In this document: positions 10,852-64,000 of the stretch, in pieces
Numbering within the stretch: position 1 is the first letter of the stretch
How the letters are laid out: each line of letters begins with the position of its first letter
NCBI RefSeq assembly: GCF_963921235.1
Contig: NC_086108.1
Coordinates: 54,562,001 to 54,626,000 of the forward strand
Direction of reading: 5' to 3'
Length of the DNA stretch: 64,000 nt
DNA from: Mobula hypostoma
Taxonomy: Eukaryota
Made by a program: the position numbers and the translations under genes
The notes under the pieces: generated by a model
Database searches by the model: none
Seen by the model: the letters and a program-made list of their open reading frames with translations, nothing else
Told to the model about the DNA's origin: nothing

Positions 10852-11774
10852 GTAGCCTTGGCAGGACTCCGTGTTGGTACATCCAGGCTTTGAATTTTCC
10901 TGGAAGCCCAGGTTTATCAATCGCAGTGAGCCAGGTTATCAAGTCGCTCCTGCTTTGTTGAAGTGCGGCTGTGTCCTTCAGGGAACTGTTGAAGATCGTG
11001 CCCAGACTCTTGACTGGTTTTTCTGTCACTGTTGGAATCTGGATCCCTCCCAGGGTAAAGCGGAACCGGTCGGCCACTCTTCCCTTCTTCAGGACCAGAG
11101 ACCTGGACTTGGCTGGTTTAAAGCTCATCCTTGCCCATGAGATGAGCCATTCCAGCCTTGAAGGAGCCATCTGCACCCAGGGACGGATGTTGCCATCACC
11201 TTCAGGTCGTCCATGAGTGCTCTTATTGGGGGCTGCCGAGTACCAGATCTAGACATGGGGCCTCTACATTCCACCTCCGCTGACTTGACAATCAGGTTCA
11301 TGGCCAGTGAGAAGAGTGGCACCGAGATTGTGCAGCCAGTGATTGTGCCCTTCTCCAGCCGATGCCAGGCGGATGTTACTGACCCTGAGGAGACTCTCAA
11401 CCTGAAGCTGCTGTAATTGTCCAGAATGAGGCACCTAATTATGGACTTTAATATTCCAGTCAACTATACAGAAATAGACGCTTCAAAATCTACTTTAACT
11501 CTCTGAAGTTGTAGCATCACCAGAATGTCTAACTTTACATCATGGTTCTAACAAGTTAGTTGGAACAAGTGAAATACTTTTGAATACTGCTGTCTGGCTT
11601 AAGAAGTCACTGATACAAGGACATGCACACCACTTGCTAAGAAATGAAGTGCATAGCATCCTGTTAGATAATCTTAGCTTAAATTGCAGCGTGCATAACA
11701 TTTTGTGATATATGCTTTGTGGGTGCACTGTGATCTGCAGGAACATTGCTTCATTTGGTTGTGTACCAACTACC

Positions 11775-12691
11775 AACTACTCGGACTTCAACTACTGCAC
11801 AGAGTCTTGTCATCTTCAGAAGTTTTCAGATGACTCTGCCATAGTTGAATGCATCAGCAAGGGAGATGAGGTTGAATACAGGGCTACGGTAGGAAACTTT
11901 GTCACGTGGTGTGAGCAGAATTATCTGCAGCTTAATGTGAAAAAGACTAAGGAGCTGGTGGTAGACCTGAGGAGAGCTAAGGTACCGGTGACCCCTGTTT
12001 CCATCCAGGGGGTCAGGGTGGACATGGTGGAGGATTACAAATACCTGGGGATACGAATTGACTATAAACTGGACTGGTCAAAGAACACTGAGGCTGTCTA
12101 CAAGAAGAGGCAGAGCCGCCTCTATTTCCTGAGGAGACTGAGACCCTTTAACATCTGCTGGACGATGCTGAGGATGTTCTACGAGTCTGTGGTGGCCAGT
12201 GCTATCATGTTTGCTGTTGTGTGCTGGGGCAGCAGGCTGAGGGTAGCAGACACCAACAGAATCAACAAACTCATTTGTAAGGCCAGTGATGTTGTGGGGA
12301 TGGAACTGGACTCTCTCACGGTGGTGTCTGAAAAGAGGATGCTGTCTAAGTTGCATGCCATCTTGGACAATGTCTCCCATCCACTACATAATGTACTGGT
12401 TGGGCACAGGAGTACATTCAGCCAGAGACTCATTCCACCGAGATGCAACACAGAGCGTCATAGGAAGTCATTCCTGCCTGTGGCCATCAAACTTTACAAC
12501 TCCTCCCTTGGAGGGTCAGACATCCTGAGCCAATAGGCTGGTCCTGGATTTATTTCATAATTTACTGGCATAAGATACATATTACTATTTAACCATTTAT
12601 GGTTTTATTACTATTTATTATTTATGGTGCAACTGTAACGAAAACCAATTTCCCCCGGGATCAATAAAGTATGACTATGACTATGACTATG
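11775..12691 (+). mobile_element. Rex1/Babar-type LINE, 5'-truncated
   Basis: LQKFSDDSAIV, LQLNVKKTKELVVD, YKYLG, SRLYFLRRL, HRKSFLPVAIKLYNSS; AATAAA then (ACTATG)n tail at 12663-12691. Confidence 0.9.
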
Positions 12692-17904: not shown

Positions 17905-20352
17905 GCGGCCAAGGTGGAAGTGTTCACGTCGCGGCCCTGTTATAACCCAGATCTTGCCATTGTCAGCAACGACATCGCTGGCCTCTGCAAGAAACTTGTC
18001 ACAGACCCAATACCACAGACACAGCACCGTCCTATTGGTATTCAGATAAATGCAGCAGTGTTACCAACCGTCGTACCATTCAAAAGGCGCTTCAACCTCA
18101 AGAAGGCCGATTGGAATGGGTTCACAAGAACACTTGACCGTAAGGTTAAACGTATTAAACCACTACCTGAGCACTACAACCTGTTTGCAAAAGCTGTCCA
18201 GAAAACAGCCAAAAGGACGATCCCCCGAGGTTGCAGAGCACACTACGTCTCTGGTCTCACCAAAGAAAATGCTGAACTCTACAGGGAGTATGCCTCAATG
18301 TTTGAATCTGACCCTTCTCAGAGGAAACAGTATCTACCGGTGAGAGGGTGATGTTAAGTATCTCTGAAGAGCGTCAAAACACCTGGAACCCTTTGATAGA
18401 GACAACAGATCTTACAAAAAAAAACAAGAAGGCATGGTCTCGCATACGCAAACTTGGAGGCGATCCCAAGAAAGCTGCCCCACATCCCAATGCGTCTGCT
18501 AACCAAGTTGCACACCAGTTGCTCCTAAATGGAAAAACCAACAAGAAACAACCAAGAGCACAGCTAGATAGGAAGAAGTACAGTGATGACCCTGGCTTCA
18601 CTGGATCATTCACCACGGAAGAGCTGGAAATTGGTATATCTAGTCTAAAACATGAGAAAGCAATTGGTCTTGACAACATAGCATTGGAGCAGATAACACA
18701 TTTTGGACAGCAAGCAAGGAAATGGCTCCTACAATTGCTCAACAACTGTCTGGCAACACACAAGCTACCTAATATTTGGCAGAAGTCACATGTAATAGCA
18801 CCCGGAAAAGATCCCTCAGATCCTAAGAGTTTTCGGCCAATCTCACTGCTTTGCCAAACTAATAAGCTGTTTCAACGCCTGATACTCAATAGGATAGCAC
18901 CAACTATAGATGAGAAGATCATTCCAGAGCAAGTAGGTTTCCGCCCTGGCAAATAAACAGCAAGCCAACTGCTCAACCTCACACAATATATCGAAGATGG
19001 TTTCGAGCAAGGGATGGTGCTATTTTTGTAGACTTGTCAGCAGCTTACACTACAGTGAACTATAGACGTCTCCTCTGCAAGATCCTAGAGATGACAAAAG
19101 ATATTCACTTAACAGAGCTGTTTGAAAGCATGCTTCAGAATCGCCGGGTCTATGTTGAACGAGGTGGGAAGCGCAGTAAGTGACGTATCCAGAAGAATGG
19201 TCTTCCTCAGGGAAGTGTGCTTGCACTGCTCTGTACAACATCTATACGAATGACCAACCTATAGATGATGTCACACGCCGTTTTATATATGCTGATGACC
19301 TATGCACCACTGCCTAAAGCACTGATTTTAACACCATGGAGAAAACACTTTCTGAGGCCTTGGAGGGGATTAACATCCTACTATGAAGAAAACCACCTCT
19401 GCGCAAACTCATCAAAGACACAAGTTTGTGCATTCCACCTCAGGAACCATGAAGCCAAGCGCCAACTTAAAGTGACCTGGTGTGGAGCAACACTGACGCA
19501 TTGTGAGCACCCTATCTACTTAGGAGTCACCCTTGACAGATGCCTCACTTTCAAGAACCACATCAATAAGACAAAGGCAAAAGTGAGTGCATGAAACAAC
19601 ATTCTGAATAAGATCACTAACACAAAATGGGGAGCAAGCTCAAAAACATTGCGATCTAGTGCACTTGCTCTTTGCTATTCTACTGTTGAATACACCTGCC
19701 CTGCAAGGGAAAGATCTACTCATGTTAAGAAGATGGATGCCACTCTGAATGCGAGCTTTCAATTTATCACAGGTTGTTTAAAACCAACAAACACCAACAG
19801 CCTATATATCCTGGCGGGTATCACTCCCCCGCTATAAGAAGAAGGGTAGCCAGCAAGAAAGAACGACTCCATCAAACATCAGATGAGAGGCACCCTCTAC
19901 ACGGTCATACACCTACACCCAGCCACCTAAAGTCAAGGAAAAGCTTCATGAACAGTGTTGTTCCATTACAATCAATCCCACCTGAAGCGCGCATCGCCTT
20001 GTGGAAAGACCGGCTCGCCAGTCTCAAACAACCCCCAACGATGGAAATTCCACCGGATGAAAGCCTTCCCCCAGGAGCTAATTGCAACTGGGCAACCTGG
20101 AAGTGCCTTCACAGACTTAGGTCTGGTGTAGGTCATTCAAAGGTGTCACTAAGCAAATGGGGATATACAACCAGCCCGACAACTTGTGAATGTGGAACTG
20201 TGCCACAAACTATGCAAATTCTCCTGCAATGCCCATTGCTAGAGGAACCCTGTACTATTGCAGGTCTTGCTGAATTCAACAACAAGGCGCAAAAATGTGT
20301 CCAGTTCTGGCTGGGCCATGTATAGATTGTCCATGGACACGATAAGAAGAGG
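17905..20352 (+). mobile_element. Vingi/Ingi-like LINE, 5'-truncated, inserted in the gypsy 5' LTR
   Basis: Perfect 10-bp TSD ACCTACTGCT (17895-17904, 20353-20362); RRFNLKKADW, SANQVAHQLLLNGK, FRPISLL, GLPQGSVL, FIYADDL, YLGVTLDR, C-terminal CECG..QTMQILLQC; very short 3' UTR with an AAGAAGAG tail; no RNase H seen. Confidence 0.8.
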
Positions 20353-20512
20353 ACCTACTGCTAATTCCAGACCAATCACCTGCAGCCTATTTAACCCCAG
20401 TTCTCACACACAGTCCTTGTTTGCTCATTGAACCAGCCAGACTCAACCAGTTGCTCCTAGCTTTCACTTTCCCTGCCTAAAGTTTACTTTTTTACCTGTT
20501 GTGTTTAGTTTC

Positions 20513-21620
20513 TGTCATGGTCCGGTCTGTGAAGTCGGCATTCTGGTTCACAATCCGGTCCATGGACTCCGGACTCCAGGTCTTCCAGCTGTCCCTTGTT
20601 TCAGTTGGGCTTAATCATAGGCACCTGATGCTCGTCCTGGGGCTGGGAATATGTGGCCCTGGGATTGATTGTAGGTGCTGGATTGTCTTGTCAGTATCCT
20701 ATCTTTGCCTCTGCGGGGTAAATCAGGCTGTCTTTGTTGTTACCCTGCGGTTGAATCTGTCCCTTCCTGTCCTTGCCTCTGTTGGGTAAGCCAGGCCGTC
20801 TTTGCCGTTACCCTGAGGCTGGGCTGTTCCCTTCTCTTCCCCTTCCTTCTGAAGCCTTGCCTGTTTCACTGTCAAGTTCTACTGCTATAGCAAGACCGGA
20901 GCCTTGCTGTGTCAAGATAAGAAACTGTCTATCGTTGTTTGGTACTGTCTCTTTGTGTCCTCACCATTGCTAGATAGGTCCGGCTGTTTGCTGCTACCTT
21001 GTGTTGGGAACCGTCTCTGTGTCCACACCTTTGCTAGGTAGGTCTGGCCATTTGCTGCTATCTTGTGTTGGGAACTCTCTTGTTGAGTTCAGCATCCTGT
21101 ATATGAGTCCCGGCTCCACGTCCTGTTCACAAAGAGGGGTCCTGGCTCTGTGTTCTTGTCTCTCAAGTCCAAGGCTCTGAGTGTCCAGTCCTCGTCCAAA
21201 GCTGTGAGGCTCCTGTCTCCCAAGACCACATCATGTCTTTGCCTAGTTCTGGGGTCCGAGCCTGAGTCAAGACCCAGGTTCTGGGTCCTTGCCCAGTCTC
21301 TGGCTTAGAGTCCACACCCAAGCCTCGAAGAACCCAAGCCTCATCATATCCTCGCCTAGTTTTGGGGTCCGAGCCCAAGTCAAGACCCAGGTTCTGGGTC
21401 CTTGTCCAGTCTTTGGCTCGGAGTCCAAGCCCAAGCTCCTAGTTCCCAGTTCCTTGTCCTGGTCCCGCTTTCCTAACCAAGTCCTAGCCCAGGTCTGTGT
21501 TCCTGTCCCAGCTCCCAGTCTGGGTCCTGTCCCGTCCCTAAGCCTAGTCCAGTCCAGTTCCTAGTACTTCAGTGTCTGTATCTTGCATTTGGGTCCACTA
21601 CTAACACCCCCCATTTGACA
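20513..21620 (+). mobile_element. Solo LTR (1108 bp) with internal tandem repeats, inserted in the gypsy 5' LTR
   Basis: TGTCA...TGACA termini; perfect 5-bp TSD GTTTC (20508-20512, 21621-21625); similar to the LTR starting at 56042. Confidence 0.9.
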
Positions 21621-22575
21621 GTTTCTTTTCTCTCCTGTTTTATGGCTTGTTTGTTTGCGGTCTATGATTAAAATTATTGTTCACTGCTGAATCATCTCTG
21701 CTGCCCTGCTTTTGGGTCAAACTTCCTCTGCATTTCTTGACAGGATGAACCCTCGATTTACCCACCTAAAGGAAATTGTTTGTTGCCACGAGTACACGAT
21801 ACAGAAGAAGCAGGAACCCATTGACCTTCTGCTCGCCACACTCGTCCACCTCTCCATCTCAGTACAGTAACTCTGTAGCATTCCCACTGAGCCCTTTTTT
21901 TCCTGTGCCCAGACACTTTGGTGGATCTCCAACCTGATATCACAACTTCCTGTCCCAGTGTGCATTACACTTCCAACTCCTGCCGTCTCTCTGTTCTGTG
22001 GACCGGGCCAAGATAGCCTTCCTCACCTCTCTCTTCTCTGGCCGAGCTCTAATCTAGGCCATGGCTAACTGGGACAATAAAATCCCTATTTGCAACAAAT
22101 ATGGGGACTTCACTGCTGAGACGCTCCAGGTTTTTGACCATCCTGGAAGAGAAAGGGTAGCAGCAGATCTAATATTTTGCCTGTATCAAGGCTCATGCAC
22201 TGTACTGGATGACACCATGGAATACAGGGCCTTGCGGAGTGTAGTTGAAATAGAATAGGAACAAGTTCTTTGGCCCACAATGTTGTGCCAAATCAACTAA
22301 AAAGTAAATTAAAAAAAACCCTCCTACTTACATAATCCCCATATCCCTCCATCTTTCATATTTATGTGCCTATCTAAACATCTCTTAAAAGTCTCTAGTG
22401 TATTTGTCTCTATCACCATACCAGGCAGTGCATTCCAGGCACCCAGAACTCTGAGTAAAAAATTTACCCCTCACATCTCCCTTGAACCTATGCCCTCTCA
22501 CCTTCAATGCATGCCCTCTGGTATTAGATATTTCCCCCTTGGGAAACAAATACTCTTCTGTTCACTCTCTATCAT

Positions 22576-25099: not shown

Positions 25100-27180
25100 C
25101 TTCTTAAGCACCCTATCGAACTTGAACCCCAATGTCTCCCTGCTCAGCACCAGCTTTAAGGATCTTGCCCTCAACAGTGTACTGTCTCCTTGCATTTGCC
25201 CTACCAATGTGCAATACCTCACATTTATCTGGGTTAAACTCCATCTGTGATATCTGCAACTACACTCCCTACAACTCCACCAGCCTTGGTATCATCTGCA
25301 AACTTACTAACCCACTCATCTACATTATCCAGATCATTTATATACATCACAAACAGCAGAGATCCCAGCACAGATCCCTGTGTAACTCCACTAATTACAG
25401 ACCTCCAGCTCGAATAGGCCCCTTCAACAATTACCCCTCTCTTCTACATGCAAACCAGTTTGGAATCCAAACAGCCAATTCACCGTGAAAACCATGCTCC
25501 CTAAGCATCTGGATTAGCCTCCCATGCGAGACTTTGACAAACACCTTACTAAAATCCACATAGACAACATCCACTGCCTGACCTTCACAAAACTCTCTCG
25601 TCACTTTGTCAAAAACATCAATTTAGTTGTTAAGACATGACTTACCTGCACAAAGCCATGCTGCCTCTCCTTAATTAGGCTATGGGTTTCCAAGTACTCT
25701 TATATCCTATCCCTAAGGATTTTCCCCAGTAATTTCCCTACACCTTGCGTGATAATCACCAGTCTATAGTTTCCAGTATTTTCCCTTTTTTCCCTTCTTA
25801 AATAGAGCTACAACGTTAGCCACTCACCAGTCCTCCAGAACCTCGCCTGTGCCTAGAGAGGACACGGAGATACTGGTCAAGGCCCCAGCAATCTTGTCTC
25901 TAGCCTCCCTCAATAACCTGGGGTAAGTTCCATCAGGAGCTGGGGCTTACCCATCTTCGTACTCATTAGGAGACATAACACTTCCTCCACTTTGATGTCT
26001 AAACATCCTAACATATTTATGCACTTGGCGCTGCTGGCCCTTTACCATCATGGCTCCTCAGAGTGCTTGAAAGACAAGCTGTCTCCCCCGAAGATCCCAT
26101 CGACCTTGAAAGCCTCATCACTCTGGCTCTCTGTATTGACAAGTATCTCATGGAACGACCTGCCAGAGCCCCAGTTCCATTCCCAGAATCATTTCAAGCT
26201 TCAGAACCTCCATTACAAATGCCTCCAGAAAACATGCCATTAGGGGGAGCTCTCTTGACCCCCCCTCCTCCCACCTAAGAACGTGTGTTGGTGAAGAAAA
26301 AACATGAGTCTACTGCAGAGCAGTAACCACCAACAGCAGCCGGGAAGTGGTGCCCCCCACATAGAAACGAGGTGCCTCCTATTTGGTCCCCCATTCCAGC
26401 ACCAGTCACACTCTCTGTCCTCCTCCACATTTCATTGACTCTACGTGCAGAGGAGGCATTTACTATCGTGGACTCAACAAAATTGCCATTACGAACCACT
26501 ACCCTCTCCTCTTGATGGATAGTGCATCTGCGGGGCCCAAATCTCCACCAAACTGGAGCTACGGAGTGCATACAACCTGATCCGCATCTGCCGGGGGATG
26601 AGTGGAAGATGGCATTTATCACACCCACTGACCACTATGAATACTTAGTGATGCCTTTCGGATCTTCCAACGGTTTCCAAGCCTTCGTTAACGATATCCT
26701 CCAAGATTTGCAGCACAGTTTTGTGCTCACTTACCTCAATGACATCCTCATCTTCTCCAAGAACTCCCAGAACCACGCCTGCCACGACCATTCAGTCCTT
26801 CAGTGTCTCCTTGAACACCAACTTGACTGCAGGTTAGAGAAGTACCAGTTCCACACCCCAGCCATCTCCTTCCTGGGCTATGTCTTTTTACCCCAAGGCA
26901 TAACCTTGGACCTGGAGTAAGTACGTGCTGTTGTTGAATGACCCTGACCAGGCACCTAGAGTTCTTCTTGGGTTTCTCCAACTTCTACCGCCGTTTCATC
27001 AGAAACTACAGCCAGATCACCACTCCTCTCACCTCCCTCACGGATAACCTGGTTTGCCGCCATGAGCCATGCTTTTGAGGAGCTCAAATGATGCTTCACC
27101 ACCACTCCCACTGGTGAGTTATCTTCTTCAAAACAATTTAATTTCATCATCTTCTTCTGACTGAGTTCCAAAGATGTTGT

Positions 27181-29571
27181 AGAACATAGAATAGTACAGC
27201 ACATTACAGGCCCTTCGGCCCACAATGTTGTGCTGACCCTCAAACCCTGCCTCCCATATAAGCCCCCACCTTAAATTCCTCCATATACCTATCTAGTAGT
27301 CTCTTAAACTTCACTAGTGTGTCTGCCTCCACCACTGACTCAGGCAGTGCATTCCACGCACCAACCACTCTCTGAGTAAAAAACCTTCCTCTAACATCCC
27401 CCTTGAACTTCCCACCCCTTACCTTAAAGCCATGTCCTCTTGTATTGAGCAGTGGTGCTCTGGGGAAGAGGCGCTGGCTGTCCACTCTATCTATTCCTCT
27501 TATTATCTTGTACACCTCTATCATGTCTCCTCTCATCGTCCTTCTCTCCAAAGAGTAAAGCCCTAGCTCCCTTAATCTCTGATCATAATGCATACTCTCT
27601 AAACCAGGCAGCATCCCAGTGAATCTCCTCTGTACCCTTTCCAATGCTTTCACATTCTTCCTATGGTGAGGCAACCAGAACTGGACACAGTACTCCAAGT
27701 GTGGCCTAACCAGTATTTTATAGAGCTGCATCATTACATTGCGACTCTTAAACTCTACCCCTCGACTTATGAAAGCTAACACCCCATAAGCTTTCTTAAC
27801 TACCCTATCTACCTGTGAGGCAACTTTCAGGGATGTGTGGACATGTACCCCCAGACCCCTCTGCTCCTCCACACTACCAAGTATCCTGCCATTTACTTTG
27901 TACTCTGCCTTGGAGTTTGTCCTTCCAAAGTGTACCACCTCACACTTCTCTGGGTTGAACTCCATCTGCCACTTCTCAGCCCACTTCTGCATCCTATCAA
28001 TGTCTCTCTGCAATCTTCGACAATCCTCTACACTATCTACAACACCACCATCCTTTGTGTCATCTGCAAACTTGCCAACCCACCCTTCTACCCCCACATC
28101 CAGGTCGTTAATAAAAATCACGAAAAGTAGAAGTCCCAGAACAGTTCTTTGTGGGACACCACTAGTCACAATCCTCCAATCTGAATGTTCTCCCTCCACC
28201 ACAACCCTCTGCCTACTGCAGGCATGCCAATTCTGAATCCACCTGGCCAAACTTCCCTGGATCCCATGCCTTCTGATTTTCTGAATAAGCCTACAGTGTG
28301 GAACCTTGTCAAATGCCTTACTAAAATCCATATAGATCACATCCACTGCACTATCCTCATCTATATGCCTGGTCACCTCCTCAAAGAACTCTATCAGGCT
28401 TGTTAGACATGATCTGTCCTTCACAAAGCCATGCTGACTGTCCCTGATCAGACCATGATTCTCTAAATGCCCATAGATCCTATCTCTAAGAATCTTTTCC
28501 AACAGCTTTCCCACCACAGACGTAAGGCTCACTGGTCTATAATTACCCGGACTACCCCTACTACCTTTTTTGAACAATGGGACAACATTCGCCTCCCTCC
28601 GGTCCTCCGGTACCATTCCCGCGGACAACGAGGACATAAAGATCCTAGCCAGAGGCTCAGCAATCTCTTCTCTCGCCTCGTGGAGCAGCCTGGGGAATAT
28701 TCCATCAGGCCCTGGGGACTTGTCCGTCCTAATGTATTTTAACAACTCCAACACCTCCTCTCCCTAAATATCAACATGCTCCAGAACATCAACCTCACTC
28801 ATATTGTCCTCACCGTCATCAAGTTCCCTCTCATTGGTGAATACCAAGGAGGAGTATTCGTTGAGGACCTCGATCACTTCCACAGCCTCCAGGCAGATCT
28901 TCCCACCTTTATCTCTAATCGGTCCTACCTTCACTCCTGTCATCCTTTTGTTCTTCACATAATTGAAGAATGCCTTGGGATTTTCCTTTACCCTACTTGC
29001 CAAGGCCTTCTCATGCCCCCTTCTTGCTCTCCTCAGCCCCTTCTTAAGCTCCTTTCTTGTTTCCCTATATTCCTCAATAGACCCATCTGATCCTTGCTTC
29101 CTAAACCTCATGTATGCTGCCTTCTTCCACCTGACTAGATTTTCCACCTCAATTGTCACCCATGGTTCCTTCACCCTACCATTCTTTATCTTCCTCACCA
29201 GGACAAATTTATCCCTAACATCTTGCAAGAGATCTCTAAACATCGACCACATGTCCATAGTACATTTCCCTGCAAAAACATCATCCCAATTCACACTCAC
29301 AAGTTCTAGCCTTATAGCCTCATAATTTGCCTCTCCCCAATTAAAAATTTTCCTGTCCTCTCTGATTCTATCCTTTTCCATGATAATTCTAAAGGCCAGG
29401 GAGCGGTGGTCACTTTTCCCCAGATGCTCACCTACTGAGAGATCTGTGACCTGACCCAGTTCATTACCTAGTACTAGATCTAGTATGGCATTCCCCCTGG
29501 TCGGCCTGTCCACATACTGTGACAGGAATCCGTCCTGGACACACTTAACAAACTCTGCCCCATCTAAACCC
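27181..29571 (-). mobile_element. Young CR1 LINE, 5'-truncated, with a 504-aa uninterrupted RT segment
   Basis: ORFs 27240-28754 and 28764-29513 (endonuclease end SDH, KFADDTK); (TTCTATG)n tail; nearly identical to 8736-10851. Confidence 0.95.
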
Positions 29572-30435
29572 TGCGATGGACCCTGTGATGGTCCATTCCA
29601 GCTGAAATGGAGACCGACCCTTAGACCATCATTCCATTAACTCAGGTCCTCAACCTGATCACCTGGAAACTTGAGAATCAGATCCACCAGGCCCTAAAGC
29701 ATAAGCTTCCTCTGGCTGACGCATCTGACAGTCACATCTACATGTCGGCGGTTTAACACTCTGAAGCACTCCAGTGTGCCCACTCCACACCCCTCTCTAG
29801 CCATCCAGGTGCATGACAGACTTTGGATTTTCAGTGAGTCTGGTTCAGCTGGCCCACCATGACCATAGCTGTATGTCTGTTTGTTGCTGCCTGCACTCAG
29901 TGCACCCGGCCCAGTCTACACGGTTCCTGATGGATCCATGTTGTCATGGACAGAGGTGAGTAGGATTGGTACGGCCTAGCGGAGAGGCCTTTGGTGTCAT
30001 CTTGGAACCATTGTCGTTGATGAGTTCCACTGGACCCATCCAGATCAGCCTGGGTCATCGGGAACCGCCCACAGGTGGGATGGGGGAGGTCCTGTCGGGT
30101 CTTTTTCCGCTAACAACTCCCAGTCTGTACATGCAGGCACCTCCCTGTCTCCACCCAGCTAATAGGATTCACCTGCCCCTCGTCCAGACTCATCATGTGC
30201 AGCTTATTTAACCCCAGTTTTCATCCATTGTCCTCTTCAATCATCATCGAACCAGCTGCTCCGGCCTTTCACTCTCCCTGCCTGAAGTTTACTTTGTTGC
30301 CTACTGTGTTTCGTTTCTGTTCTCTCTTGTTTTGTGTCTTGTCATTTTCTGGTCTATTATTAAAGTTATCATTCACCTCTGAATCATCTCCACTGTTCTG
30401 CTTTTGGGTCAACCCTCCTCTACATTTTCCTGACA

Positions 30436-53840: not shown

Positions 53841-55091
53841 TATTGTGTATAGTTGTACCAAATAAAGTGGCCACTAAGGGTATGTCTGTGATAATAAACC
53901 TGATTCTGAACTGTGGCATTTATGATAAAGGATGTAGGAGGGTTGATACAGGTAAAGTAGCACAGACAAATAGGATATCACAACCAGTTGCTCAAGAGTT
54001 GTGAAAATCATAGAAAGCTGCAGATGGTGGAAATCTGAAATAAAGACAAGAGGTATTGGAGGCACTCATTGAGAAATAAAAGAACTTAAAATTCAGGTCG
54101 ATGAGATTTGTCAGGAAAAGTTCTGATGGGAGGTCTTTTATTTAAGATTTTAGCATTCTTTCCAAGACGTTGCCAGATCTGTTGAACATATACGTAATTT
54201 TGTGGTTTGCTTAGCGTTTATGGCAGAAAGCATTTTTGCATACAGACGCGTAGAGGGAACTTCAAATTCTCTTCCAGACATGGCTTATGAGGCGAATATT
54301 AATATCAAAACTGAATCTCTTTTGTAATGTTAGGACAATAATGAATATGGAACTTTGATCTTATTGAATGGCAGTGCAGGCTGAAAATGGAGTGGCCAAT
54401 GTAATTTTAGTGAAAATGGGAACATGTAGTAGGTGTTGATGCAGGCAAACATAATGTTTTTCATACTTTTTATTATTTCATTCAGCATTCTTGTAGGCTT
54501 TTTCTTTCATATCTCAGTTTTATTTTCTCTGTCAATTGTGAAACTGTTTATTTTTAGAAGTCTTATGTTGAAGCTCATTATTAACTGAGTTTGCTAAAGT
54601 CAGCATTTGGGGATGATAAATAACCTCCACACTCTTAAATCAGACAGCAGGAAAGTCAGCCATGGTTCAAACTCTTAGTTATAAAACATTAACCTTAGTG
54701 GAAAATGTAAGTGCTTTTGGATATTGTGTCAGGATAACATCTGTCTTAGCTCTTCTACTTCTGAGTAAAAAGACGGCTGGCATTTTTTTTAAGGTCACAT
54801 ATAAAGGTTGGCAATTGGAAGACGTGTAATGGCATCCTGAAAGACAGCTGTGTGAGAGATTATAGGAAAGAAATCAAAAAAGAGATAACAATTAATGAAT
54901 ATATAGGAGCCCAAACCAACTCTATGCCTTATGAATTTCCAACTGGAATAGATCAATGGCTAAACGAGCTCGATTCATAAAAAAATCCTGCAGCTCTAAG
55001 TACAGTAATTGCACCTCAATAGTAAGTTGGTACTGCTCAGTATAACCTTCGCCTATGAGCGGGTGGTTGCAATTTTTAGTGCAGTAATTAT

Positions 55092-55617
55092 CAGACATCC
55101 CACCTCTCCCGGAAGTTCCGGGAGTGTCCCGCATATTAATAGTGGCTCCCTGATGCCCGCAAATTGTATACAATATCACGGAAATCAATTTTTTTGAGAG
55201 CGAGAGTGCGAGAGCACTTGAGAGCGTGCGAGCGACCACGAGAGAGAGAGAGAGAGAGAGCGCGAGCGAGAGCACGCCATGGCAGAGTGTTCCAAAAAAA
55301 ATATAAAGCGTACGTCACCCCAGATTACACTAAAGTGTACCCCTGCCTAATAGGGGTCAAAATAATGTCAGTGTTGCTCGCTGCACTGTTTGCAACAGTG
55401 ACTTTTCTATTGCCCATGGTGGGTTAAGACTGTAAAAGACATGTTGAGGTGAGTTTAACTGGTGTCATTCGTTCATTAGCATTGCTAACGTTATTTAAAC
55501 TAGCTGGCCAGCTGCTAAGGAGCTACTCTACTGCAGACATCCCACCTCTCCCGGAAGTCTCCTGTAAATTGATGGTGTTACCTCCCTGAAATGAGTTTTT
55601 GCAGGGTGGGATGTCTG
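55092..55617. mobile_element. Non-autonomous DNA transposon (MITE, 526 bp)
   Basis: Perfect 13-bp TIRs CAGACATCCCACC/GGTGGGATGTCTG; 6-bp TSD AATTAT (55086-55091, 55618-55623); internal (GA)n near 55240-55260. Confidence 0.9.
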
Positions 55618-56180
55618 AATTATATTCAACTTGCATTGCTATCAATTTTTGAAAGCAAGATATTGTTAAAAGCTCAATTTTATGGGATTTACAAGCCATC
55701 AGTCTCCAGCATTTCTTAGGGAGTGGCTGGGCTAACATCATGACAGCAGTGAGGAAGTGCTTGGATCAGATTTTGATTAACTGTCAAACCCAGCATGGCA
55801 GATCTTTTACCACAATGAGCACCCAGGAAATCTGAATTAAAAACTTTAAGTGCTTAGCATATCAGAAAATGTGCTCACACAGAGAAAATGGGGTTAATAT
55901 TTCAGAGTGAAAGACTTCCCTAAAAAAAGACATATCTAAGTGTCTACAATACAAGAAAGGGGAAGGGAATAAAAAATTATTGAATTGCCGCATCATGCTG
56001 CCTGGAAAAAGGCCATTCAGCCCAACTCAACTACACTGATCTGTCATAGTCCGGTCCACTAAGTCCGCATTCCAGTTCATGGTCCGGTCCACCAACCCTT
56101 GCTCCAGGTTTTCTTATCTGCCCTGTTTCTGTTCTTGTTGAGCTCTAACTGAGTCAGTTGATGCTAGTTGGGGCTGGCTG

Positions 56181-56188
56181 TATAAATA
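56181..56188 (+). promoter_or_regulatory. TATA box of the LTR
   Basis: TATAAATA about 140 bp into the LTR, the expected U3 position. Confidence 0.55.
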
Positions 56189-56267
56189 CCTCCAGAGACC
56201 AGGGTGTGGCCGCTGGATTGTTCTTGTCCTTACTCCTTGTATCCCTTGCTCTGCCTTCTGTTTTCTC

Positions 56268-57378
56268 GCCTGAAGCCTTGCCTCGCCTTGCCTCGCCTCG
56301 CCTCGCCTGAAGTTCTGTCTCGCCTTGCCTTGCCTTGCCTTGCCTTGCCTTGCCTTGCCTGAAGTTCTGTCTCGCCTTGCCTTGCCTTGCCTTGCCTGTA
56401 ACTCTAGGCTCGCCTGAAGTTCTGTCTCGCCTTGCCTTGCCTTGCCTTGCCTTGCCTTGCCTTGCCTGTAACTCTAGGCTCGCCTGAAGTTCTGTCTTGC
56501 CTTGCCTTGCCTTGCCTTGCCTTGCCTGAAGTTCTGTCTCGCCTTGCCTTGCCTTGCCTTGCCTGAAGTTCTGTCTCGCCTTGCCTTGCCTGTAACTCTA
56601 GGCTCGCCTGAAGTTCTGTCTCGCCTTGCCTTGCCTTGCCTGTAACTCTAGGCTCGCCTGAAGTTCTGTCTCGCCTTGCCTTGCCTTGCCTTGCCTGTAA
56701 CTCTAGGCTCGCCTGAAGTTCTGTCTCGCCTTGCCTTGCCTTGCCTTGCCTTGCCTGTAACTCTAGGCTCGCCTGAAGTTCTGTCTCGCCTTGCCTTGCC
56801 TTGCCTTGCCTGTAACTCTAGGCTCGCCTGAAGTTCTGTCTCGCCTTGCCTTGCCTTGCCTTGCCTGTAACTCTAGGCTCGCCTGAAGTTCTGTCTCGCC
56901 TTGCCTTGCCTTGCCTTGCCTTGCCTTGCCTTGCCTTGCCTTGCCTTGCCTGTAACTCTAGGCTCGCCTGAAGTTCTGTCTTGCCTTGCCTTGCCTTGCC
57001 TTGCCTTGCCTGAAGTTCTGTCTCGCCTTGCCTTGCCTTGCCTTGCCTGAAGTTCTGTCTCGCCTTGCCTTGCCTGTAACTCTAGGCTCGCCTGAAGTTC
57101 TGTCTCGCCTTGCCTTGCCTTGCCTTGCCTTGCCTGTAACTCTAGGCTCGCCTGAAGTTCTGTCTCGCCTTGCCTTGCCTTGCCTTGCCTGTAACTCTAG
57201 GCTCGCCTGAAGTTCTGTCTCGCCTTGCCTTGCCTTGCCTTGCCTGTAACTCTAGGCTCGCCTGAAGTTCTGTCTCGCCTTGCCTTGCCTTGCCTTGCCT
57301 TGCCTTGCCTTGCCTTGCCTTGCCTTGCCTGTAACTCTAGGCTCGCCTGAAGTTCTGTCTCGCCTTGCCTTGCCTTGC
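56268..57378 (+). repeat. Composite minisatellite I: GCCTGAAGTTCTGTCTC + (GCCTT)n + GCCTGTAACTCTAGGCTC
   Basis: Directly visible tandem array with a variable pentamer count. Confidence 0.97.
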
Positions 57379-57418
57379 TGTCTGGTCCTGGAGCCACCCT
57401 GTACCTAGCTCCTTTCCT

Positions 57419-57554
57419 GTCCCTTGCCTCTGCCCAGGTAAGCCAGGCCGTCTTGCCGTTACCTGGGGTTGGTTCTGTCCCTTCCAGTCCCTTGCCTCTG
57501 CCCAGGTAAGCCAGGCCGTCTTGCCGTTACCTGGGGTTGGTTCTGTCCCTTCCT
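57419..57554 (+). repeat. 68-bp tandem duplication (two copies), each containing a hairpin
   Basis: GTCCCTTGCCTCTGCCCAGGTAAGCCAGG... begins at 57419 and 57487. Confidence 0.9.
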
Positions 57555-57623
57555 GTCCCTTGCCTCTGTCGGGTGCTGATCTGCGCCCTGCCCAGGAGAT
57601 CCGTGCCCTGCCCAGGAGGAGCC

Positions 57624-60600
57624 AAGCCTCGCCTCGTCTCAAGTCTCCAGCCTCCAGCCTCGCCTCGCCTCAAGTCTCCAGCCTCCAGCCTCGCCTCGCC
57701 TCAAGTCTCCAGCCTCCAGCCTCGCCTCGCCTCAAGTCTCCAGCTTCCAGCCTCGCCTCGCCTCAAGTCTCCAGCCTCCAGCCTCGCCTCAAGTCTCCAG
57801 CCTCGCCTCGCCTCAAGTCTCCAGCCTCCAGCCTCGCCTCAAGTCTCCAGCCTCCAGCCTCGCCTCAAGTCTCCAGCCTCCAGCTTCGCCTCGTCTCCAG
57901 CCTCCAGCCTCGCCTCGTCTCCAGCCTCCAGCCTCGCCTCGCCTCAAGTCTCCAGCCTCCAGCCTCGCCTCGCCTCGCCTCAAGTCTCCAGCCTCCAGCC
58001 TCGCCTCGCCTCGCCTCAAGTCTCCAGCCTCCAGCCTCGCCTCGTCTCCAGCCTCCAGCCTCGCCTCGCCTCAAGTCTCCAGCCTCCAGCCTCGCCTCGC
58101 CTCAAGTCTCCAGCCTCCAGCCTCGCCTCGCGTCTCCAGCCTCCAGCCTCGCCTCGCGTCTCCAGCCTCCAGCCTCGCCTCGCCTCAAGTCTCCAGCCTC
58201 CAGCCTCGCCTCGCCTCAAGTCTCCAGCCTCCAGCCTCGCCTCGCCTCAAGCCTCCAGCCTCCAGCCTCGCCTCGCCTCAAGTCTCCAGCCTCCAGCCTC
58301 GCCTCGCCTCAAGTCTCCAGCCTCCAGCCTCGCCTCGCCTCAAGTCTCCAGGCTCCAGCCTCGCCTCGCCTCAAGCCTCCAGCCTCCAGCCTCGCCTCGC
58401 CTCAAGCCTCCAGCCTCCAGCCTCGCCTCGCCTCAAGTCTCCAGCCTCCAGCCTCGCCTCGCCTCAAGTCTCCAGCCTCCAGCCTCGCCTCGCCTCAAGC
58501 CTCCAGCCTCGCCTCGCCTCAAGCCTCCAGCCTCGCCTCGCCTCAAGTCTCCAGCCTCGCCTCGCCTCAAGTCTCCAGCCTCGCCTCACCTCGCCTCGCC
58601 TCAAGTCTCCAGCCTCCAGCCTCGCCTCAAGTCTCCAGCCTCCAGCCTCGCCTCAAGTCTCCAGCCTCCAGCCTCGCCTCGTCTCCAGCCTCCAGCCTCG
58701 CCTCGCCTCAAGTCTCCAGCCTCCAGCCTCGCCTCGCCTCGCCTCAAGTCTCCAGCCTCCAGCCTCGCCTCGCCTCAAGTCTCCAGCCTCCAGCCTCGCC
58801 TCGTCTCCAGCCTCCAGCCTCGCCTCGCCTCAAGCCTCCAGCCTCCAGCCTCGCCTCGCCTCGCCTCAAGTCTCCAGCCTCCAGCCTCCAGCCTCGCGTC
58901 TCCAGCCTCCAGCCTCACCTCGCCTCAAGTCTCCAGCCTCCAGCCTCGCCTCGCCTCAAGTCTCCAGCCTCCAGCCTCGCCTCGCCTCAAGCCTCCAGCC
59001 TCCAGCCTCGCCTCGCCTCAAGCCTCCAGCCTCGCCTCGCCTCAAGTCTCCAGCCTCGCCTCACCTCAAGTCTCCAGCCTCCAGCCTCGCCTCGCCTCCA
59101 GCCTCGCCTCAAGTCTCCAGCCTCCAGCCTCGCCTCGCCTCAAGTCTCCAGCCTCCAGCCTCACCTCGCCTCAAGTCTCCAGCCTCCAGCCTCGCCTCGC
59201 CTCAAGTCTCCAGCCTCCAGCCTCGTCTCGCCTCAAGCCTCCAGCCTCGCCTCGCCTCAAGTCTCCAGCCTCCAGCTTCGCCTCGCCTCAAGTCTCCAGC
59301 CTCGCCTCGCCTCAAGCCTCCAGCCTCGCCTCGCCTCAAGTCTCCAGCCTCCAGCCTCGCCTCGCCTCAAGTCTCCAGCCTCCAGCCTCCAGCCTCCAGC
59401 CTCCAGCCTCGCCTCGCCTCAAGCCTCCAGCCTCGCCTCGCCTCCGGCCTCCAGCCTCGCCTCGCCTCTAGTCTCCAGCCTCCAGCCTCGCCTCGCCTCG
59501 CCTCAAGTCTCCAGCCTCCAGCCTCGCCTCGCCTCCAGCCTCGCCTCAAGTCTCCAGCCTCCAGCCTCGCCTCGCCTCAAGTCTCCAGCCTCCAGCCTCG
59601 CCTCGCCTCAAGTCTCCAGCCTCCAGCCTCGCCTCGCCTCAAGTCTCCAGCCTCCAGCCTCGCCTCGCCTCAAGCCTCCAGCCTCGCCTCGCCTCAAGTC
59701 TCCAGCCTCGCCTCGCCTCAAGTCTCCAGCCTCCAGCCTCGCCTCGCCTCAAGTCTCCAGCCTCCAGCCTCGCCTCGCCTCCAGCCTCGCCTCAAGTCTC
59801 CAGCCTCCAGCCTCGCCTCGCCTCAAGTCTCCAGCCTCCAGCCTCGCCTCGCCTCAAGTCTCCAGCCTCCAGCTTCGCCTCGCCTCAAGTCTCCAGCCTC
59901 GCCTCGCCTCAAGTCTCCAGCCTCGCCTCGCCTCAAGCCTCCAGCCTCGCCTCGCCTCAAGTCTCCAGCCTCCAGCTTCGCCTCGCCTCAAGTCTCCAGC
60001 CTCGCCTCGCCTCAAGTCTCCAGCCTCGCCTCGCCTCAAGTCTCCAGCCTCCAGCCTCGCCTCGCCTCGCCTCAAGTCTCCAGCCTCCAGCCTCGCCTCG
60101 CCTCCAGCCTCGCCTCAAGTCTCCAGCCTCCAGCCTCGCCTCGTCTCCAGCCTCCAGCCTCGCCTCGCCTCAAGTCTCCAGCCTCCAGCCTCGCCTCGCC
60201 TCGCCTCAAGTCTCCAGCCTCCAGCCTCGCCTCGCCTCAAGTCTCCAGCCTCCAGCCTCGCCTCAAGTCTCCAGCCTCCAGCCTCGCCTCGTCTCCAGCC
60301 TCCAGCCTCGCCTCGCCTCGCCTCAAGTCTCCAGCCTCCAGCCTCGCCTCGCCTCAAGTCTCCAGCCTCCAGCCTCGCCTCGCCTCGCCTCAAGCCTCCA
60401 GCCTCCAGCCTCGCCTCGCCTCGCCTCAAGTCTCCAGCCTCCAGCCTCGCCTCGCCTCGCCTCAAGCCTCCAGCCTCCAGCCTCGCCTCGCCTCGCCTCG
60501 TCTCCAGCCTCCAGCCTCGCCTTGCCTCAAGTCTCCAGCCTCCAGCCTCGCCTCGCCTCGCCTCAAGTCTCCAGCCTCCAGCCTCGCCTCGCCTCAAGTC

Positions 60601-63600
60601 TCCAGCCTCCAGCCTCGCCTCAAGTCTCCAGCCTCCAGCCTCGCCTCGTCTCCAGCCTCCAGCCTCGCCTCGTCTCCAGCCTCCAGCCTCGCCTCGCCTC
60701 AAGTCTCCAGCCTCCAGCCTCGCCTCGCCTCAAGTCTCCAGCCTCGCCTCGCCTCGCGTCTCCAGCCTCCAGCCTCGCCTCGCGTCTCCAGCCTCCAGCC
60801 TCGCCTCGCCTCAAGTCTCCAGCCTCCAGCCTCGCCTCGCCTCAAGCCTCCAGCCTCCAGCCTCGCCTCGCCTCAAGTCTCCAGCCTCCAGCCTCGCCTC
60901 GCCTCAAGTCTCCAGCCTCGCCTCGCCTCAAGTCTCCAGCCTCCAGCCTCGCCTCGCCTCAAGCCTCCAGCCTCCAGCCTTGCCTCGCCTCAAGTCTCCA
61001 GGCTCCAGCCTCGCCTCGCCTCAAGCCTCCAGCCTCCAGCCTCGCCTCGCCTCAAGCCTCCAGCCTCCAGCCTCGCCTCGCCTCAAGTCTCCAGCCTCCA
61101 GCCTCGCCTCGCCTCAAGTCTCCAGCCTCCAGCCTCGCCTCGCCTCAAGCCTCCAGCCTCGCCTCGCCTCAAGTCTCCAGCCTCGCCTCGCCTCAAGTCT
61201 CCAGCCTCGCCTCGCCTCGCCTCGCCTCAAGTCTCCAGCCTCCAGCCTCGCCTCGCCTCAAGTCTCCAGCCTCCAGCCTCGCCTCAAGTCTCCAGCCTCC
61301 AGCCTCGCCTCGTCTCCAGCCTCCAGCCTCGCCTCGCCTCAAGTCTCCAGCCTCCAGCCTCGCCTCGCCTCGCTTCAAGTCTCCAGCCTCCAGCCTCGCC
61401 TCGCCTCAAGTCTCCAGCCTCCAGCCTCGCCTCAAGTCTCCAGCCTCCAGCCTCGCCTCGTCTCCAGCCTCCAGCCTCGCCTCGCCTCAAGTCTCCAGCC
61501 TCCAGCCTCGCCTCGCCTCAAGTCTCCAGCCTCCAGCCTCGCCTCAAGTCTCCAGCCTCCAGCCTCGCCTCGTCTCCAGCCTCCAGCCTCGCCTCGCCTC
61601 AAGTCTCCAGCCTCCAGCCTCGCCTCGCCTCAAGTCTCCAGCCTCCAGCCGCGCCTCGCCTCGCCGCAAGTCTCCAGCCTCCAGCCTCGCCTCGCCTCAA
61701 GTCTCCAGCCTCCAGCCTCCAGCCTCGCCTCAAGTCTCCAGCCTCCAGCCTCGCCTCGCCTCAAGTCTCCAGCCTCCAGCCTCACCTCGCCTCAAGTCTC
61801 CAGCCTCCAGCCTCGCCTCGCCTCAAGTCTCCAGCCTCCAGCCTCGCCTCGCCTCAAGTCTCCAGCCTCCAGCCTCGCCTCGCCTCAAGTCTCCAGCCTC
61901 CAGCCTCGCCTCGCCTCAAGCCTCCAGCCTCGCCTCGCCTCAAGTCTCCAGCCTCGCCTCGCCTCAAGTCTCCAGCCTCGCCTCGCCTCAAGTCTCCAGC
62001 CTCCAGCCTCGCCTCGCCTCGCCTCAAGTCTCCAGCCTCCAGCCTCGCCTCGCCTCCAGCCTCGCCTCAAGTCTCCAGCCTCCAGCCTCGCCTCGCCTCA
62101 AGTCTCCAGCCTCCAGCCTCACCTCGCCTCAAGTCTCCAGCCTCCAGCCTCGCCTCAAGCCTCCAGCCTCGCCTCGCCTCAAGTCTCCAGCCTCGCCTCG
62201 CCTCAAGTCTCCAGCCTCCAGCCTCGCCTCGCCTCAAGCCTCCAGCCTCGCCTCGCCTCAAGTCTCCAGCCTCCAGCTTCGCCTCGCCTCAAGTCTCCAG
62301 CCTCGCCTCGCCTCAAGTCTCCAGCCTCGCCTCGCCTCAAGTCTCCAGCCTCCAGCCTCGCCTCGCCTCAAGTCTCCAGCCTCCAGCCTCGCCTCGCCTC
62401 AAGTCTCCAGCCTCCAGCCTCGCCTCGCCTCAAGCCTCCAGCCTCGCCTCGCCTCAAGTCTCCAGCCTCGCCTCGCCTCAAGTCTCCAGCCTCGCCTCGC
62501 CTCAAGTCTCCAGCCTCCAGCCTCGCCTCGCCTCGCCTCAAGTCTCCAGCCTCCAGCCTCGCCTCGCCTCCAGCCTCGCCTCAAGTCTCCAGCCTCCAGC
62601 CTCGCCTCGCCTCAAGTCTCCAGCCTCCAGCCTCACCTCGCCTCAAGTCTCCAGCCTCCAGCCTCGCCTCAAGCCTCCAGCCTCGCCTCGCCTCAAGTCT
62701 CCAGCCTCCAGCCTCGCCTCGCCTCAAGCCTCCAGCCTCGCCTCGCCTCAAGTCTCCAGCCTCCAGCTTCGCCTCGCCTCAAGTCTCCAGCCTCGCCTCG
62801 CCTCAAGTCTCCAGCCTCGCCTCGCCTCAAGTCTCCAGCCTCCAGCCTCGCCTCGCCTCGCCTCAAGTCTCCAGCCTCCAGCCTCGCCTCATGTCTCCAG
62901 CCTCCAGCCTCGCCTCGTCTCCAGCCTCCAGCCTCGCCTCGCCTCAAGTCTCCAGCCTCCAGCCTCGCCTCGCCTCAAGTCTCCAGCCTCCAGCCTCGCC
63001 TCGCCTCAAGTCTCCAGCCTCCAGCCTCGCCTCATCTCCAGCCTCCAGCCTCGCCTCGCCTCAAGCCTCCAGCCTCCAGCCTCGCCTCGCCTCGCCTCAA
63101 GTCTCCAGCCTCCAGCCTCGCCTCGCCTCAAGTCTCCAGCCTCCAGCCTCGCCTCGCCTCGCCTCAAGTCTCCAGCCTCCAGCCTCGCCTCGCCTCAAGT
63201 CTCCAGCCTCCAGCCTCGCCTCAAGTCTCCAGCCTCCAGCCTCGCCTCAAGTCTCCAGCCTCCAGCCTCGCCTCGCCTCGCCTCAAGTCTCCAGCCTCCA
63301 GCCTCGCCTCAAGTCTCCAGCCTCCAGCCTCGCCTCAAGTCTCCAGCCTCCAGCCTCGCCTCGCCTCGCCTCAAGTCTCCAGCCTCCAGCCTCGCCTCGC
63401 CTCGCCTCAAGTCTCCAGCCTCCAGCCTCGCCTCAAGTCTCCAGCCTCCAGCCTCGCCTCAAGTCTCCAGCCTCCAGCCTCGCCTCGCCTCGCCTCAAGT
63501 CTCCAGCCTCCAGCCTCGCCTCGCCTCAAGTCTCCAGCCTCCAGCCTCGCCTCAAGTCTCCAGCCTCCAGCCTCGCCTCATCTCCAGCCTCCAGCCTCGC

Positions 63601-64000
63601 CTCGCCTCAAGCCTCCAGCCTCCAGCCTCGCCTCGCCTCGCCTCAAGTCTCCAGCCTCCAGCCTCGCCTCGCCTCAAGTCTCCAGCCTCCAGCCTCGCCT
63701 CGCCTCGCCTCAAGTCTCCAGCCTCCAGCCTCGCCTCGCCTCAAGTCTCCAGCCTCCAGCCTCGCCTCAAGTCTCCAGCCTCCAGCCTCGCCTCAAGTCT
63801 CCAGCCTCCAGCCTCGCCTCGCCTCGCCTCAAGTCTCCAGCCTCCAGCCTCGCCTCGCCTCGCCTCAAGTCTCCAGCCTCCAGCCTCGCCTCAAGTCTCC
63901 AGCCTCCAGCCTCGCCTCAAGTCTCCAGCCTCCAGCCTCGCCTCGCCTCGCCTCAAGTCTCCAGCCTCCAGCCTCGCCTCAAGTCTCCAGCCTCCAGCCT
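57624..64000 (+). repeat. Composite satellite II built from GCCTC, AAGTCTCCA and GCCTCCA modules (common unit 31 bp), more than 6.3 kb
   Basis: Directly visible; frequent unit GCCTCGCCTCGCCTCAAGTCTCCAGCCTCCA; runs to the window end. Confidence 0.98.

Follow-up and report, generated by a model that had tools for sequence, protein, structure and literature searches.

Tandem repeats born inside retrotransposon long terminal repeats (LTRs) have long been known. Passages of reviews report them from mouse (Ms6-hm and Hm-2), Ctenomys, swamp eel, potato, maize, and barley (PMC9659126, PMC6947457, PMC7463522). Here, we analyzed a stretch of 64,000 nucleotides from the ray Mobula hypostoma (contig NC_086108.1, positions 54,562,001 to 54,626,000 of the forward strand, hereafter called the window). 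We found that an LTR of a dispersed high-copy family is inserted at position 56042 of the window and that two short-unit tandem arrays, about 1.1 kb and at least 6.4 kb in length, begin inside it. The locus is a well-bounded case of tandem arrays in a young LTR.

The closest described systems differ from this locus in several ways. Ms6-hm and Hm-2 are described in passages of two of the reviews as expanded simple tandem repeats in MaLR LTRs of the mouse (PMC9659126, PMC6947457). The ray locus resembles them in that short-unit tandem arrays of a vertebrate arose inside an LTR. In addition, the units of Ms6-hm and Hm-2 are G-rich and 4-5 bases long, and they resemble the minus-strand AAGGC/GAGGC pentamers of the ray arrays. 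However, the ray LTR is of another class and has two arrays with higher-order repeats. Moreover, an expanded simple repeat has one very short unit, whereas both ray arrays are compound, made of pentamers and linkers, and not pure. Germline mutation of Ms6-hm and Hm-2 was 3-7% per band in control mice in the results given in part by PMC3419097, whereas the ray arrays are known from sequence alone.

In plants, 9 of 11 Lathyrus satellites derive from short arrays within Ogre elements that occasionally expanded, according to the relevant passages of Vondrak et al. (PMC7004042). The Ogre-derived satellites (those of Lathyrus sativus and PisTR-A of pea) differ from the ray case because their arrays lie in the 3′ untranslated region and not in the LTR, and they were shown genome-wide by long reads and fluorescence in situ hybridization in the same passages, whereas the ray case is one locus. 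Review passages also list LTR-derived satellites such as Sobo and the St3 series of potato, CRM1TR and CRM4TR of maize, RPCS of Ctenomys, and MALREP of swamp eel (PMC9659126, PMC7463522). These share with the ray arrays the derivation of tandem units from LTR sequence. Most of them consist of long monomers that were taken out of the LTR and multiplied into centromeric blocks. In contrast, the ray units are tiny and stand within one inserted copy that has kept its 5′ part in place. Satellites derived from short interspersed nuclear elements (SINEs) in squamates are similar in that part of a vertebrate retroelement formed arrays of modest length by repeated origin, but the source is a SINE and the unit is a sizeable part of the element (passages of Vassetzky et al., PMC10702118). 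The portion of a frog tandem-repeat paper that was covered (PMC12054243) contains nothing bearing on the ray arrays. In searches of the open literature, including the accessible portions of two batoid preprints (10.64898/2026.10.27.761883 and 10.1101/2025.06.08.657570), the ray LTR and its arrays were not found; subscription journals, Repbase, and Dfam were outside this scope, and the repeat tables of the preprints may bear on the point.

The features of the locus and of a related LTR in the same window are as follows.

56037-56041, + strand: TGATC, the last host bases and candidate left copy of the target site duplication (TSD), with contig edges at 56041.
56042-56260, + strand: high-copy 5′ part of the LTR (TGTCA start, U3, presumed start of R), 75.7% identical to 20513-20700.
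56181-56188, + strand: TATA-like box TATAAATA at the TATA position of the LTR.
About 56261-57379 (about 1.1 kb), + strand: array 1, with 2-10 GCCTT pentamers per run and two linker types between runs.
57380-57624, + strand: LTR island, consisting of a spacer, a 68-bp unit in 2.3 copies (57410-57568), a 20-bp pair (57578-57617), and the entry of array 2.
57625-64000 (6,376 bases, open at the window end), + strand: array 2, a compound GC-rich minisatellite of 213 units, mostly 24-36 bp.
20513-21620 (1,108 bp), + strand: solo LTR of a related subfamily, with TGTCA start, TGACA end, and the 5-bp TSD GTTTC (20508-20512 and 21621-21625).
20849-20885, + strand: single module like the units of both arrays (GCCTT/GCCTC pentamer plus AAGT(T)CT), matching the array-1 entry at 14 of 14 bases and colinear with the array-2 entry.

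The insertion has a sharp edge. Its 5′ end is a TG (TGTCA at 56042), directly preceded by the TGATC that an earlier reading of the same DNA, made from the letters only (the sequence-only reading), had pointed out. Contigs from four of 24 runs, namely X1 (organism A), X5 (organism B), X9 (organism C), and X17, were compared with 55560-56270, and the threshold for likeness of a contig to the LTR was 85%. X1 contig 1 spans the junction with 0 differing letters, although run X1 is possibly not independent of the window sequence. In X5, 24 contigs carry unlike flanks up to 56042 (agreement 0.39). Thus, the 5′ end of the family is fixed at 56042. X9 contig 32 (2,682 letters, depth 16.2) matched the flank 55621-56041 with 32 differing letters and continued beyond 56041 for 1,077 further letters that are unlike the LTR at this threshold. 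We read this contig as a candidate empty site in organism C. In addition, the X5 contig that carries the flank (contig 17) stops at exactly 56041, the outcome to be expected if an animal had the LTR on one allele and lacked it on the other. This break has another possible cause, because the last 40 flank bases are a repeat piece. In three DNA runs, this piece (56003-56041) has the depth of a moderate-copy repeat (300-1,400), and the LTR has thus inserted into or next to another repeat.

The flank differs at 8 of 428 letters (1.9%) in organism B and at 32 of 421 letters (7.6%) in organism C. Judged from these alignments, the insertion is younger than the split of organisms A and C, and its age may be about that of the split of A and B. 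The head of the LTR is highly repeated: its summed depth in X1 was 10^4-10^5 vs 27 on the flank. The ratio of head to flank was 3,400- to 9,900-fold in X1 (bins 56160-56231) and 390- to 12,000-fold in X5, and these ratios give an order of magnitude and no copy number. In organism C, the summed depth was zero over 56136-56270. The LTR at 56042 belongs to a dispersed high-copy family. A 15-base pattern of the LTR start was found at no fewer than 121 loci in metagenome contigs, none of those listed being homologous beyond a 26-base chance match; the pattern is too short to inform.

The sequence-only reading had described a satellite born inside an LTR, with an unexpanded relative in the same window. 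As a whole, its observation was partly confirmed and its interpretation partly supported. The claimed colinearity with the solo LTR at 20513-21620 lies far above shuffled sequences. The head (56042-56275) is identical to 20513-20700 at 134 of 177 positions (75.7%), with a local score of 106 against 32 for the best of 300 shuffles, and the island (57376-57630) is identical to 20690-20860 at 157 of 192 positions (81.8%), with a score of 140 against 40 (300 shuffles). Head and island follow each other in the same order as in the solo LTR. When the window was scanned, only these two segments matched the solo LTR elsewhere, and the remaining matches belong to its flanking host element. The part of the island in common with the solo LTR is the 68-bp tandem pair, and the two full 68-mers of the island differ at 2 of 68 sites. 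Array 1 is thus flanked on both sides by LTR-homologous sequence and arose within the LTR lineage; its origin is inside the LTR. The claim that the arrays begin inside the LTR agrees with this position and with the insertion edge at 56042.

Both arrays follow a grammar. In array 1, there are 20 linkers of the GAAGTTCT type and 14 of the TGTAACTCTAGG type, and a grammar of four tokens leaves 5 mismatches in 1,095 bases. Array 1 also has a higher-order repeat with a period of 379 and 299 bp exact. The units of array 2 are built from the blocks AAGTCTCC, AGCCTCC, and GCCTC. They fall into 36 types in non-periodic order, the commonest being a 31-mer with 56 copies, and the grammar leaves 49 mismatches in 6,376 bases (0.77%). 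The longest repeated string comprises 12 units, vs at most 7 in 100 shuffles. Furthermore, array 2 contains blocks repeated at 98-100% identity, with lengths of 397 bp (period 514), 313 bp (period 546), and 318 bp (at a spacing of about 2.65 kb). Exact repeats within the array reach 390 bp at most, and copies of a rare variant unit stand 2.65 kb from each other. An alignment of array 1 with array 2 covers their core. There are 408 intact TCGCC sites vs 11 of the decayed type, and in array 2 the observed/expected ratio of CpG is 0.81 vs 0.26 in the rest of the window, that is, nearly undepleted. The uniformity of the arrays, the block repeats, and the undepleted CpG thus point to recent slippage plus block duplication. 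Neither TGACA nor TGGGTC was found in a scan of 56042-64000; thus, array 2 begins before the expected end of the LTR.

The lengths given by the sequence-only reading (about 1.1 kb and more than 6.3 kb) held. Its word satellite is apt in that the units are homogenized with higher-order repeats. Classical satellites extend over tens of kb to Mb and are usually heterochromatic. Array 2 covers at least 6,376 bases and is open-ended, and the size label is a matter of scale.

Some other properties of the arrays were examined. The long open frames across array 2 were rejected as coding, as the units simply have no stop codons on the + strand. The open frame at 57341-57940 gave nothing in a protein search among 138 and 7,998 candidates, and two weak, unrelated low-complexity matches among 1.84 billion representatives. 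Strong secondary structure was considered as a driver, but over stretches of about 120 bases the hairpins reach only -0.9 to -13.8 kcal/mol, which is weak. No three-tier G-quadruplex motifs were found; the motifs present are two-tier, with 22 and 221 on the G-rich strand. A 28-base array pattern had 0 matches in prokaryote genomes, and an 18-base island pattern was found at one locus in viral contigs, with the pattern alone matching.

The solo LTR is well defined. When its flanks are aligned to an uninterrupted relative of its host element (30245-30400), a gap of exactly 5 bases is needed, which is the TSD. It includes tandem pairs of 68, 64, and 113 bp, and the 68-bp pair is 78% alike. It holds 3 of the 7 tandem-repeat rows before 56000, yet it makes up 2% of that stretch. 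The proposal that this LTR family is prone to repeats is borne out by these rows; the proposed mapping of its seeds to the arrays is not. First of all, in the solo LTR the 68-mer pair (20697) follows the head directly, which leaves almost nothing in the interval said to be equivalent to array 1. The seed near 20849 follows the 68-mers on their 3′ side, whereas array 1 precedes them on the 5′ side. The 14-base match CTGAAGCCTTGCCT (20849-20862) to the array-1 entry is itself beyond chance, being reached in 1 of 300 shuffles and 0 of 98 genomic controls. In contrast, the CCAAGCCTC seed at 21318 is at chance level (146 of 300 shuffles and 9 of 98 genomic controls).

The solo LTR was also taken for an unexpanded form. 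Its identity in the head is 76%, and it is missing the 40 bases just before array 1, although these bases have high depth among closer copies of the family. Because of this, the solo LTR is a distant cousin and not an unexpanded ancestor. A better reading of the alignments is that the solo LTR has one module and the copy at 56042 two related modules, in an order that differs from one subfamily to another. The element in which the solo LTR is nested is a smaller LTR-like one (about 20329-20512 and 21626-21742 of the window); it contains a TATTTAA box and ATTAAA and ends in TTTTGGGTC...TGACA. A relative of this host element at about 29943-30435 has a longer 5′ part and no matching TSD.

The LTR family is probably Ty3/Gypsy. 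One basis for this label is the end motifs, which we take to be like those of fish Gypsy LTRs. The other is that Gypsy/DIRS1 is the main LTR class in batoids, as stated in part of a preprint (bioRxiv 10.64898/2026.10.27.761883). In the window, 4 of the 13 frames scanned have RVT_1 matches, all far from both LTRs.

The TATA box had been called intact. The box TATAAATA is present at 56181-56188; it follows a CAnnTG-like motif at the same position as the TATTTAA box in each of two smaller LTR-like elements of the window. However, its first T is absent from most of the family: the letter at 56181 is C in 127,875 of 128,408 depth in X1, and C makes up 99.6% in X1 and in X5. The perfect spelling would therefore belong to this copy or a small subfamily, and it is no particular sign of activity. 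Because a CATAAA box can serve as a TATA element, promoter use would be compatible with the C of the family. Of the 24 runs listed, none is recorded as RNA. In run X17 (presumed RNA), contigs of the family lie on the head, with 5-23 differing letters among the eight listed. The X17 contigs gave no cover of the unique flank, which speaks neither for nor against transcription of the 56042 copy.

Taken together, we consider it probable that the seeds were carried by the subfamily, that the arrays grew at the site, and that the tail of the LTR lies beyond the window. A copy of the high-copy LTR family (TGTCA...TGACA, 5-bp TSD) would have inserted at 56042 in the ray lineage after its split from organism C. 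Downstream of the TATA position, its subfamily would carry a C/T-rich module prone to slippage (GCCTT or GCCTC pentamers plus an AAGT(T)CT linker), once on each side of the 68-bp tandem pair; a single similar module is present in the cousin at 20513. Replication slippage may have altered the pentamer runs, after which unequal exchange or gene conversion may have duplicated blocks of 300-550 bp at the site, giving arrays of 1.1 kb and at least 6.4 kb. The remainder of the LTR, ending in TGACA (followed by TGATC if solo), would be expected beyond the window. More speculatively, R might extend from about 56210 almost to the 3′ end, which would place the modules within the region of first-strand transfer, and out-of-register transfer in reverse transcription could produce subfamilies that differ in the number and order of modules. 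A similar idea of strand transfer was proposed for the Ogre repeats (in a passage of PMC7004042). It is possible, though rather doubtful, that this subfamily, which would number roughly in the thousands of copies and occur in two or more related ray species, has its modules in R, reshuffles them in reverse transcription, and has seeded many independent multi-kb arrays.

Several points weigh against growth at the site of seeds brought by the LTR. Over 56042-64000, no 3′ end of the LTR, no second copy of the TSD, and no primer-binding site with an internal region was seen; a TGATC at 57577 was rejected as the right TSD because no TGACA precedes it. The solo LTR showed no poly(A) signal, and the R/U5 boundary is thus assumed from the smaller LTR-like elements of the window. 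The empty site in X9 is deduced from the alignment stop and the single-copy depth of the contig, and the timing of the insertion is loose (8 of 428 vs organism B, 32 of 421 vs organism C). The colinear match of the module at 20849-20885 to the array-2 entry is weak (50 of 1,000 shuffles). In addition, nine sites within 56092-56211 differ from the family majority, some opposite to the direction of CpG decay; they may be mostly a subfamily difference. These nine sites were also considered as a sign of age, with arrays much younger than the insertion, a view weakened by the young age that the orthologous comparison gives and by changes that run in more than one direction. Finally, the uniformity of the arrays by itself does not prove growth after insertion, and part of them may have been carried in.

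This last point leads to the possibility that the arrays are a normal part of the LTR subfamily, mobilized with kilobase-long arrays in many copies and with little growth at the site. The 40 bases before array 1 have high depth (266,000 and 234,000 in X1, bins 56208-56255), several contigs reach the end of the compared stretch, and a young insertion leaves little time for growth. However, a length above 8 kb would be exceptional for an LTR, and the exact repeats of 299-390 bp with periods of 379-546 bp resemble recent local block duplications. We consider such mobilization unlikely. There is a slight chance that only array 1 was born in the LTR, and that the LTR was cut short near 57625 and fused, through a deletion or a recombination event, with a dispersed satellite of related units (array 2). 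Such a junction would be in line with the absence of an LTR right end from the window, with the weak colinear match mentioned above, and with the 770 bases of the solo LTR (20850-21620) that have no counterpart in the window. It conflicts with the likeness of the array-2 units to those of array 1, which lies within the LTR, and with a search of 1-56260, where the array motifs were found nowhere. Furthermore, the contig of organism C assembles across the site at single-copy depth, which argues that no long satellite was there before. That the length of array 2 is partly an artefact of assembly, an over-expanded or mis-joined repeat, is very improbable: the data from outside the window are contigs, but 36 unit types in non-periodic order and exact internal repeats of at most 390 bp are unlike a copied segment of a read. 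Growth at the site from carried seeds is thus the explanation we favor overall.

Other elements were also seen in the window. A very high-copy element at 55090-55617 has similar sequence at both ends and a GA-rich core; in each of the four runs compared, contigs by the hundreds pass into unlike flanks at its end at 55617. It is probably a small non-autonomous transposon. The window has a vertebrate, repeat-rich character with many reverse-transcriptase fragments. Two copies bearing reverse transcriptase (8738-10851 and 27180-29301) lie on the same strand and are 93.6% alike over 2.1 kb; they represent a fairly young family similar to long interspersed nuclear elements (LINEs). An open frame of 275 codons at 11709-12536 (+ strand) matches ALKBH8_N (PF09004), a model that often marks the C-terminal regions of LINEs.

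The arrays are most likely neutral, unstable DNA without function. As a single locus, the finding adds an example from cartilaginous fishes to the known list. If it holds in a survey of the family, array length could be compared with insertion age and chromosome position, which would be a direct test of why only some seeds grow. GC-rich simple tandem repeats are abundant in the genomes of stingrays and sharks according to part of a preprint (bioRxiv 10.1101/2025.06.08.657570), and the family might then be a possible source of these repeats. If many arrays were indeed seeded independently, the young and partly polymorphic insertions would offer thousands of natural replicates of satellite birth in a vertebrate, from one seed and with dated starts.

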